Shown here: piece by piece, positions 1,873 to 2,897 of the stretch
Numbering within the stretch: the stretch's first letter is position 1
Layout of the letters: each line of letters starts with the position of its first letter
DNA from: a virus
Taxonomy: Duplodnaviria > Heunggongvirae > Uroviricota > Caudoviricetes
Virus record (IMG/VR): IMGVR_UViG_2609460059_000004
Length of the DNA: 8,368 nt
Direction: 5' to 3' (one strand)
Notes under the pieces: model-generated
Seen by the model: the letters and a program-made list of their open reading frames with translations, nothing else
The model's database searches: none
What the model was told of the DNA's origin: nothing
Program-made: the position numbers and the translations under genes

Positions 1873-1990
1873 CACGTACTGTGGTTGTGAATACGATTGG
1901 TATTAGGCTATGCTAACAACATTAGCCTGACTAATTTTGTATTGACTTAATTTTTGTTAAAGAACAGGACGAAGACGTAAGGGTACACCA

Positions 1991-2170
1991 ATGAGCTACG
2001 CACTAAAAAAACACCCGCGATTGACTATTCCCCCTCGCGATAAAAGCGTTGTGGCAGCTCCGCGCCCGGCTATCGATGAAAATTGCACTCATCGTGAGCA
2101 GGTGAAAAATGCTTTCGATTTCGGTTTTTCTCGTTACGAGAAGGCAATGGAAGATCTTTCAAAAGTGTAA
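1991..2170 (+). CDS. small ORF, 59 aa, candidate antitoxin or partner of the downstream Doc-like gene
   Basis: ATG 1991 to TAA 2168-2170 (MSYALKKHPRLTIPPRDKSVVAAPRPAIDENCTHREQVKNAFDFGFSRYEKAMEDLSKV). Ends 18 nt before the Doc-like start. Just below the 60-aa track cutoff. No family recognised. Confidence 0.4.
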   Translation: MSYALKKHPRLTIPPRDKSVVAAPRPAIDENCTHREQVKNAFDFGFSRYEKAMEDLSKV

Positions 2171-2188
2171 TGATGGGTATTGTGCTCT

Positions 2189-2674
2189 ATGGCTGAGATT
2201 GTTGAAGGAGTGCACTACCTTTCGGTTGATGATCTTACTGAAATTAATCGCCTTTTAATTGAGCTTCAAACACCAGATGAACCTGTTGGTGTGCTGAGTG
2301 TTGATAATTTAAGTTCTTCTCAGTCTCGTCCCAGTATGGTTCGATGGTATGAGCAAACCAACGACATGTTTGTACTGGCATCGGTATTGATTGAAAGTCT
2401 GATTCAGAATCATCCATTTGCCAATGCAAACAAGCGCACAGCAATGATGGCTGGTGCGGTTTTTTTATTGTTAAATGGATACGAATTAACCGCACCAGGC
2501 GATGAAGTTGTGGAGATGGCTGAGGGGCTGGCCTGTAAAATTTATACACGAGAAGAGCTTGAAAATTGGTTGTGTTATTGGTCTCGTGCGTATGACAGTC
2601 GGGAATTATGTAAAACAGGCGCAACTATTGTTTTGTATGAAACTATCAAGCTTAAAATAGAACAGCAAAACTAA
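2189..2674 (+). CDS. Doc (death-on-curing) / Fic-fold family toxin-like protein, 161 aa
   Basis: Contains HPFANANKRTAMMAGAVFLLLNGYEL, fitting the Doc-type variant of the Fic motif (HxFx[D/N][A/G]NKR) followed by FL..NG. About 35 aa longer at the C-terminus than a typical ~126-aa Doc. Start taken at ATG 2189; the track start at 2180 is a TTG. Confidence 0.75.
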   Translation: MAEIVEGVHYLSVDDLTEINRLLIELQTPDEPVGVLSVDNLSSSQSRPSMVRWYEQTNDMFVLASVLIESLIQNHPFANANKRTAMMAGAVFLLLNGYELTAPGDEVVEMAEGLACKIYTREELENWLCYWSRAYDSRELCKTGATIVLYETIKLKIEQQN

Positions 2675-2692
2675 AGATGCTTCTAATGAAAA

Positions 2693-2712
2693 CTCGCTTC
2701 GGCGGGTTTTTT
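2693..2712 (+). terminator. rho-independent terminator after the Doc-like gene
   Basis: CTCGC, UUCG loop, GCGGG, then TTTTTT (2707-2712). The 18 nt CGCTTCGGCGGGTTTTTT are identical to 1856-1873. Confidence 0.65.
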
Positions 2713-2897
2713 GTTGCGTGCTGAATATGCAGGGTGAAAAATAACCATATATTTGATTATATACACAGCCAAAAATAAAAGTCATTGTACCTGCACATTA
2801 AACAATCAAATATACGACGTGAAATAAATATTTTTCAGATTAATATTTTTGTCTCTATGTGGATATAACCTTTTGTACTTATAAACCTGGAGGCATC

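Follow-up and report, generated by a model that had tools for sequence, protein, structure and literature searches.

A prophage cassette pairs a Doc-family toxin with a 59-residue candidate minimal antitoxin

We analysed an 8,368-nt stretch of DNA from a Caudoviricetes virus, IMG/VR record IMGVR_UViG_2609460059_000004 (hereafter the window, at its full length), in which a short cassette (1873-2712) carries a gene for a 59-aa protein followed by a gene for a 161-aa protein of the Doc (death-on-curing) family. Doc ranks among the founding families of toxins. The two genes probably constitute a type II toxin-antitoxin (TA) pair, in which the 59-aa protein would neutralise Doc by means of a kinked C-terminal helix lying in a groove of the toxin. 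We propose that the cassette is a self-contained, horizontally mobile moron of a Rac-like lambdoid prophage. The 161-aa Doc would be, by homology, a Fic-fold kinase that phosphorylates EF-Tu and arrests translation, and the 59-aa protein the cognate antitoxin, pared down to its neutralising element. By prediction, a kinked amphipathic helix of ~24 residues (34-57) would slot into Doc at its concave face; the models for this insertion are the C-terminal helices of Phd (from P1, Salmonella and E. faecalis) and of Doc antitoxins of the MazE/AbrB or ribbon-helix-helix (RHH) type. The proline-rich N-terminal tail of 33 residues, with its IPxRDK motif, would take the place of the N-terminal DNA-binding/dimerisation domain, and may add a contact with Doc or act as a protease or sensor handle. 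We infer binding and neutralisation, the lability of the antitoxin and the pay-off of the system, be it prophage addiction and/or anti-phage defence. The features of the cassette and its borders are as follows.

1851-1872, + strand: intrinsic terminator of hok, left copy of a 22-nt direct repeat, AACCCGCTTCGGCGGGTTTTTT (fold -12.6 kcal/mol)
1873-1990, + strand: cassette leader and putative promoter region, with an extended -10-like motif, TGGTATTAG, at 1898-1906
1991-2170, + strand: 59-aa partner, putative minimal antitoxin (ATG start; phrog_2208; RefSeq WP_000119355.1, 'hypothetical protein')
2189-2674, + strand: Doc family Fic-fold kinase toxin, 161 aa (ATG start; RefSeq WP_000818163.1)
2411-2437, + strand: catalytic Fic/Doc motif HPFANANKR, residues 75-83 of Doc, of the form HxFx(D/N)(A/G)NKR
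2689-2712, + strand: intrinsic terminator of the cassette, a stem-loop followed by a T-run (fold -14.9 kcal/mol, z=-3.25)
2691-2712, + strand: right copy of the 22-nt direct repeat, 21/22 identical to 1851-1872

The two genes are inherited together. Both open reading frames (ORFs) and the 18-nt gap between the stop codon of the first (2168-2170) and the ATG of the second (2189) were found exactly where a preliminary description, made from the letters of the window alone, had placed them, and its view of the small ORF as the antitoxin-like partner of Doc is borne out as far as the layout goes: the genes are adjacent and co-directional, the small gene comes first, and the two are inherited as a unit, as is typical of type II systems. 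The 59-aa ORF immediately precedes the Doc gene of this subfamily in 115/115 loci, namely in 35/35 loci from genomes and isolated phages (where the subfamily was defined as Doc of at least 55% identity) and in 80/80 IMG/VR contigs, all of which carry both genes intact and adjacent. No intact Doc of the subfamily was found without its partner among the 115 loci, and six Docs at 35-45% identity lack the 59-aa ORF. Where Doc is intact the gap measures 0-18 nt; it reaches 59 nt in Providencia sp. Me31A (L029), in which Doc is frameshifted. The pair occurs in Escherichia, Salmonella, Providencia, Morganella, Proteus, Serratia, Yersinia, Pantoea, Xenorhabdus and Arsenophonus, and also in Pseudomonas, Stutzerimonas, Gilliamella, Entomomonas and the Pseudomonas phages Sirocco and LPPA56. 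Moreover, pairwise distances of partner and Doc are correlated (r=0.84), and none of 2000 Mantel permutations reached this value. The pairing is thus obligate, and co-inheritance goes far beyond chance.

The 59-aa gene is a real gene under purifying selection: the ratio of nonsynonymous to synonymous substitution rates (dN/dS) stands at 0.15 over the whole gene, at 0.23 in codons 1-34 and at 0.09 in codons 35-59. It had been taken to be unannotated; RefSeq already holds it, under the name listed above. The protein spans the whole of phrog_2208, a family annotated as of unknown function (E=5.4e-42), and has no match in Pfam, NCBIfam, PADLOC or the PDB, where a profile search gave chance hits only; for five members of the family no Pfam match appeared at E<=10, Phd/YefM (PF02604) included. 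A profile search of 1.84 billion representative proteins returned 36 clusters. Thirty-five of these comprise proteins of 38-95 aa matched near end to end and carrying no extra domain; the other, of 1,274 aa, has eight partial matches and was judged spurious. Searching with a fused profile revealed no natural fusion of the 59-aa protein to Doc in the database, and in the window two stop codons intervene within 1991-2674. Literature searches retrieved no publication on the partner family, on phrog_2208 or on the partner-Doc pair. The partner family is uncharacterised; the toxin is known and already annotated.

By its sequence, the 161-aa protein is a clear member of the Doc family, and the assignment is robust. 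It matches NCBIfam TIGR01550 (DOC_P1) over residues 11-130 (E=3.8e-35; 120.7 bits against a curated cut-off of 38.65), Pfam Fic/DOC PF02661 (E=1.6e-11; 45.3 bits, cut-off 24) and phrog_577, 'Doc-like toxin' (E=1.1e-48), and RefSeq names it 'type II toxin-antitoxin system death-on-curing family toxin'. Among solved structures, it comes closest to the Docs of E. faecalis (9VZC, E=6.4e-14) and P1 (3K33, E=1.8e-4), and homology to solved Docs implies an all-helical Fic/Doc fold. The Doc-type motif that had first pointed to this family is conserved throughout, with H75, F77, N79, N81, K82 and R83 invariant across 36 Doc homologues. The Docs of P1 and Salmonella phosphorylate EF-Tu (Thr382/383) and thereby arrest translation (PMC9207808); by homology, we infer toxicity and the same target for the Doc of the window.

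The protein is longer than P1 Doc (161 against 126 aa). Because its residues 53-115 align with P1 Doc 44-105, the excess divides into ~9 aa at the N-terminus and ~25 aa at the C-terminus; the C-terminal extension described earlier does exist, but it was overestimated at ~35 aa and is mostly variable past Cys141. Conservation in the family stops at WLCYWSRxYDSRxLC, which ends at this cysteine, and the final ~20 residues vary in length and sequence. In most Enterobacterales homologues this tail (residues 142-161, 2612-2674 in the window) shows alternating hydrophobics and then an acidic residue at the end, as in IKLKIE, LKIKID, LRIHID, IRVISCE and FEIKQD. The pattern resembles an amphipathic beta-strand, which, speculatively, could find a pairing partner in the RLxIP segment of the 59-aa protein.

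The shape of the partner points to the way in which it might act. Its family alignment shows two conserved blocks, RLxIPxRDKxxVAxP(R/K)(P/A)A at the N-terminus and QVxNAFxxxFxRYEKAxxxLSKV at the C-terminus. An AlphaFold2 (AF2) model built from 38 sequences (mean predicted local distance difference test, pLDDT, 78) contains two helices, 34-48 and 50-57, interrupted at residue 49. Residues 1-33, which include the conserved IPxRDK, are modelled as extended and proline-rich, with no regular secondary structure; this N-tail has four prolines in ~20 residues, and the pLDDT is 83 at residues 11-20. Foldseek returned 0 hits for the model in the PDB, and no DNA-binding domain was detected by Pfam or NCBIfam hidden Markov models (HMMs), by the PDB sequence-profile search or by Foldseek. 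The Doc-binding C-terminal domain of Phd consists of two helices with a kink (PMC9207808), and residues 52-79 of E. faecalis Phd, a protein whose sequence, as the authors of that structure note, shows no detectable likeness to E. coli Phd, form a bent helix in the 9VZC complex (PMC13034048). The predicted helix of the 59-aa protein agrees in shape with both.

The likeness extends to the antitoxins of more distant Docs. When the family HMM was run over the 5082 ORFs of the fetched loci, the Doc-adjacent antitoxins of three of these loci (L041, L040 and L039) accounted for 3 of the top 4 non-family hits, all matching C-end to C-end. In hhalign, the 59-aa family aligned with the antitoxin tails of the distant Docs at a probability of 75.7% (score 23.7, 21 columns); 300 column shuffles gave 8.0 +/- 1.8 with a maximum of 16.6, so that 0/300 reached the observed score, and control antitoxins that do not pair with Doc (MazE, RelB, CcdA, YefM, ParD and YhfG) scored 7-10. 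Among the partners of the distant Docs (L036-L041), three carry MazE/AbrB PF04014, two above and one below the curated cut-off, and RHH-like matches were sub-threshold. Their tails, which include QYRSALEKLAE, QHAEALRRLAK and KNRKLLERLADK, resemble RYEKAMEDLSKV of the 59-aa protein. Thus the partner has, by prediction, a kinked amphipathic C-terminal helix like the tails of other Doc-linked antitoxins, probably those of the RHH type as well as those of the MazE/AbrB type, and this helix most likely belongs with the Doc-neutralising elements known as 'Phd-C' (PMC10440598). The preliminary description was right that the small protein does not resemble Phd, in that it has no Phd/YefM domain and no Pfam match; its suggestion of a new antitoxin type does not hold for this C-terminal helix.

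Several points weigh against neutralisation by the helix. Individual HMM matches to the other Doc antitoxin tails are weak (E=0.14-9), and part of the tail similarity could be convergent, because amphipathic helices share their periodicity. Similarity to P1 Phd could not be demonstrated: in hhalign the family reached 15% over 9 columns with a 3-sequence Phd alignment and 1.3% with P1 Phd alone, in a register that differs from the hot-spot alignment. The match in spacing to the hot spots of the Salmonella Typhimurium antitoxin (PhdSTm) reflects a generic amphipathic-helix periodicity, and we treat it as a lead only, not as evidence. The conserved N-terminal motif is not accounted for by a model in which the helix neutralises. 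For the toxin, the all-helical fold rests on homology only, because the AF2 model of Doc alone is poor (pLDDT 51; the alignment behind it was shallow, with every sequence >=63% identical); Foldseek of this low-confidence model listed P1 Doc chains only at E ~3-5 and is uninformative. Finally, a frameshifted Doc with an intact partner occurs in three loci, L029, Proteus penneri ATCC 33519 (L034) and Arsenophonus nasoniae (L035), and the reverse, a broken partner with an intact Doc, in 0 loci; given the gene lengths this asymmetry is not significant (P ~0.39), and although it fits a TA relationship we dropped it as evidence for one.

The cassette has sharp borders and moves as a unit. In an empty-site prophage (L047, strain Z1323CEC0009), the flanks are joined at a single copy of the terminator and the module is missing. 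The BLAST segments of the two flanks share precisely the 22-nt terminator, and the module is therefore an 840-bp indel (1873-2712); recombination between the two 22-nt repeats would remove it precisely. The terminator that had been attributed to the module was missed by a simple terminator scanner and was detected by folding. A terminator of the AACCCGCTTCGGCGGGTTTTT type also follows Doc in loci of Xenorhabdus, Pantoea and Citrobacter, and therefore travels with the module. At least six unrelated contexts harbour the pair, among them lambdoid early regions, tail/baseplate clusters, integrase neighbours (as in Sirocco and LPPA56), an AlpA island and, in Providencia, the chromosomal interval between topA and sodC, where phage genes are absent within 3 kb. 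Presence/absence polymorphism at a defined site, an own terminator and unrelated phage contexts are the marks of a phage moron, in line with the carriage as prophage cargo first suggested. The cassette was found in 164 IMG/VR contigs and in 125 of 5426 complete E. coli genomes (2.3%), always on the chromosome. Copies at 91-94% identity lie in prophages of outbreak-associated pathotypes, O104:H4 C227-11 and FDAARGOS_349 (H103/H106) and O121 (H115).

This distribution bears on what the pair may be for. It might serve mainly in anti-phage defence, through abortive infection or superinfection exclusion, if an infecting phage depleted or displaced a labile mini-antitoxin, or triggered the system via the N-tail, and thereby freed Doc. 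The moron-like carriage at many prophage positions, from lambdoid early and tail/baseplate regions to the side of the integrase in Sirocco and LPPA56, would fit such a role, as would the 164 contigs and the proximity of other toxin systems (hok/sok here, a RelE/ParE pair in locus L002), and TA systems are increasingly shown to act in defence (PMC10440598). However, no PADLOC-DB v2 system was matched: the 59-aa protein gave nothing and Doc gave partial, Fic-motif hits to PDC-S23 (E=1.6e-3 and 4.1e-3). Literature searches found no experimental report, and the Providencia pair is chromosomal, with no phage genes within 3 kb. We hold a mainly defensive role to be a doubtful reading; as a claim about function, it is compatible with a helix-neutralised Doc pair rather than being an alternative mechanism.

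Doubtful, too, is a purely selfish function, in which the pair would stabilise the prophage or island by post-segregational arrest, as P1 phd-doc does, with no further benefit to the host. Homology to P1 Doc, the presence/absence polymorphism among E. coli genomes and the occasional decay of the toxin gene would agree with addiction; yet integrated prophages are seldom lost by segregation, and carriage by inducible temperate phages at many positions fits a host benefit equally well.

The conserved N-tail suggests a further variant, which we consider rather unlikely, in which the 59-aa protein is the neutralising element alone and its tail a sensor or degron. A phage product or a host protease would then free Doc, and the family would represent a widespread post-translational switch for abortive infection that works in the absence of transcriptional autoregulation.

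Whether the 59-aa protein could instead repress its own promoter was judged from the region upstream. A scan for consensus promoters gave no match upstream of the partner. Motifs similar to TGGTATTAG recur ~56-115 nt upstream of the partner ATG in Enterobacterales loci of different contexts (72-93 nt in the closest), and TGGTATTAG is a plausible cassette promoter, with transcription predicted to start near 1913. An inverted repeat, TTAGGCTA (1903-1910) and TAGCCTGA (1923-1930), overlaps the motif (7/8 complementary; fold 1895-1945, z=-2.76). The preliminary description had noted these repeats correctly and read them as a possible operator; the latter part is not supported. With an estimated ~0.4 perfect 7-nt inverted repeats per 200 nt expected by chance, the repeat is not above chance level; in the class at 91% identity (L050) its arms carry two substitutions that are not compensatory; it is absent in L048 and L049; and in the class at 87% identity homology begins exactly at the partner ATG, the upstream region being wholly different. 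We therefore rejected an operator at 1903-1930. Other loci have unrelated palindromes of their own near the promoters. In some, 5-7 nt inverted repeats span a recurring ATTAGAC-like motif; their loop lengths vary and they are near chance, and they were likewise set aside. In Providencia and Morganella (L006 at 2729-2760, L015 and L018), a strong TTGACT-N17-TATAAT-like promoter lies upstream, with a 7-9 nt inverted repeat between -35 and -10 of which both arms change from locus to locus (TAATGAAAG/CTTTCATTA, TAATGTA/TACATTA and TAATGAAA/TTTCATTA); these repeats look like operators.

A classical autoregulated type II module, in which the 59-aa protein would both neutralise Doc and bind DNA through a novel N-terminal element, for instance a beta-ribbon of dimerised RLxIPxRDK, and so act at the upstream inverted repeat to repress its promoter, could draw on the conservation and moderate AF2 confidence of the N-terminal motif, on the palindromes at several promoters, those of Providencia and Morganella among them, and on E. 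faecalis Phd, which binds DNA by a beta-sheet arrangement (PMC13034048). Against it, none of the domain searches detected a DNA-binding domain, the proline-laden N-tail has no predicted regular structure, the palindromes differ entirely between loci despite the conserved protein motif, and the repeat of the window is imperfect and not maintained. Autoregulation by the 59-aa protein is hence to be doubted, since it has no detectable DNA-binding domain, and we regard the classical module as improbable.

It is very improbable that the 59-aa protein is not an antitoxin at all, and is instead a co-factor, a specificity subunit or an unrelated co-transcribed peptide beside a Doc that is non-toxic or otherwise controlled. 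Fic/Doc proteins do have varied activities (PMC10440598), and the E. faecalis complex neutralises its toxin without occluding the motif, which indicates that mechanisms are diverse in the family (PMC13034048); however, the strict upstream pairing in every locus, the invariant catalytic motif of Doc, the likeness of the C-terminal helix to known Doc-antitoxin tails and the lack of any intact subfamily Doc without its partner all argue otherwise. Inhibition of the FicA/VbhA type was rejected, the inhibitory motif being absent from the 59-aa family.

The window is part of a Rac-like lambdoid prophage of E. coli APEC O1: positions 1400-3300 are 100% identical to NC_008563.1 (1479701-1481601), the annotation of which agrees throughout with the features called here. 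Around the cassette we noted the following.

107-538: DUF977 gene, first in the left-to-right gene order
702-1388: QueH, epoxyqueuosine reductase (PF02677, E=1.9e-65)
1456-1632: sok RNA (Rfam RF01794, 119 bits)
1645-1782: hok, encoding the Hok peptide (PF01848, E=1.1e-21)
4967-5120: tRNA-Thr (TGT) and tRNA-Gly (TCC), between the Q-like DUF1133 antiterminator gene and the downstream lysis cassette
6594-7070: Rz, lysis gene
7190-8368: trkG, beginning directly after the lysis genes and continuing past the end of the window

The prophage cargo includes QueH, an enzyme of tRNA modification. Directly upstream of the Doc cassette lies an entire type I hok/sok module (1456-1782), so that two unrelated toxin systems adjoin, and in locus L002 (FORC_069) a RelE/ParE and helix-turn-helix pair follows Doc on the opposite strand. 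Because of these two cases, we suggest that the interval of lambdoid prophages between the replication and nin regions is a TA hot spot. The best sigma-70-like match of the region is on the minus strand (2785-2756, ATGACT-N18-TATAAT, 10/12) and is directed left, toward the Doc terminator; an A-run precedes and a T-run follows this terminator, which could therefore work in both directions. Doc is followed by a phrog_1813 ORF, DUF1367, YbcO, the Q-like DUF1133, tRNA-Thr, tRNA-Gly, S, R, Rz and trkG. Inside Rz, an embedded ORF in the +1 frame (6826-7011, + strand) encodes 61 aa with a lipobox, LVVVGC, and a proline-rich tail, features typical of an Rz1 o-spanin; the RefSeq feature table has a single 'lysis protein' entry at this region. 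The trkG gene encodes a potassium transporter and is known cargo of the Rac prophage.

All together, the 59-aa protein is best read as an antitoxin from which all but the neutralising element has been stripped. To our knowledge, known Doc antitoxins all consist of a DNA-binding head and a toxin-binding tail. If our reading is true, the family would provide a natural case of the antitoxin tail acting alone and would put to a direct test the model of 'linear, modular neutralisation' that has been published for antitoxin evolution. A function would likewise be given to phrog_2208, which is present in ~2% of complete E. coli genomes, O104:H4 and O121 included, and in many prophages of Salmonella, Providencia, Serratia, Pantoea, Xenorhabdus and Pseudomonas. 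If the cassette also shields lysogens from other phages, it would be a Doc-based addition to the defence repertoire. The gain is moderate, because the toxin gene was already annotated: the module is an uncharacterised variant of a well-known TA system and not a revolutionary one.

Several known systems share parts of this design. Like the class I Fic antitoxins FicA/YhfG and VbhA, the partner is a small protein (~55-62 aa in those systems) encoded directly upstream of a Fic-fold toxin. However, the 59-aa family has no (S/T)xxxE(G/N) motif, the nearest string being S47-R-Y-E50-K, in which S47 and E50 are unconserved; hhalign against YhfG gave 0.1%; and the toxin here belongs to the Doc type rather than to the AMPylating Fics.

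The Phd-Doc systems of P1 and Salmonella Typhimurium (PDB 3K33, 3DD7) are closer. They share the antitoxin-toxin gene order, a Doc kinase with HxFx(D/N)(A/G)NKR and phage-borne carriage. Moreover, the C-terminal ~22-24 residues of the 59-aa protein are predicted to form a kinked helix with hydrophobics at i, i+4, i+7, i+11 and i+14, ending 3 residues past the last Leu as in PhdSTm 52-73 (PMC9207808). In contrast, the partner lacks the N-terminal Phd/YefM domain (no PF02604) and is shorter (59 against 73 aa), with no demonstrable similarity to Phd (hhalign 15% and 1.3%), and Doc is longer (161 against 126 aa). The fetched Phd-Doc pairs overlap by 4 nt, whereas the genes here are 18 nt apart (0-18 nt in the family) and no overlap was found.

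In the MazE/AbrB-Doc and RHH-Doc modules (TasA-TasB of B. thuringiensis pGI1, PMC1626090, and L036-L041), the last ~21 residues of the antitoxin align with residues 38-58 of the 59-aa protein and share the pattern ...[RQ][YH]xxA[LM]xxL[AS]K. Their antitoxins begin with a DNA-binding domain (PF04014 or RHH-like) where the 59-aa protein has its proline-rich IPxRDK tail, and their Docs are only 35-45% identical to that of the window.

The idea of a single-domain antitoxin and of a portable Phd-C is already published (PMC10440598): Phd-C can neutralise as a portable element, and a Doc is neutralised by SUMO-Phd-C on its own. Because the isolated Phd-C failed in that study when it had no stabilising tag, the N-tail of the 59-aa protein may supply stability or another function. 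As with Panacea-Phd-C of the C. doosanense Doc and the engineered SUMO-Phd-C of the NetFlax study (PMC10440598), a short Phd-C would suffice, whatever is attached to it; unlike these, the 59-aa protein has no recognisable attached domain and would be a natural single-element antitoxin.

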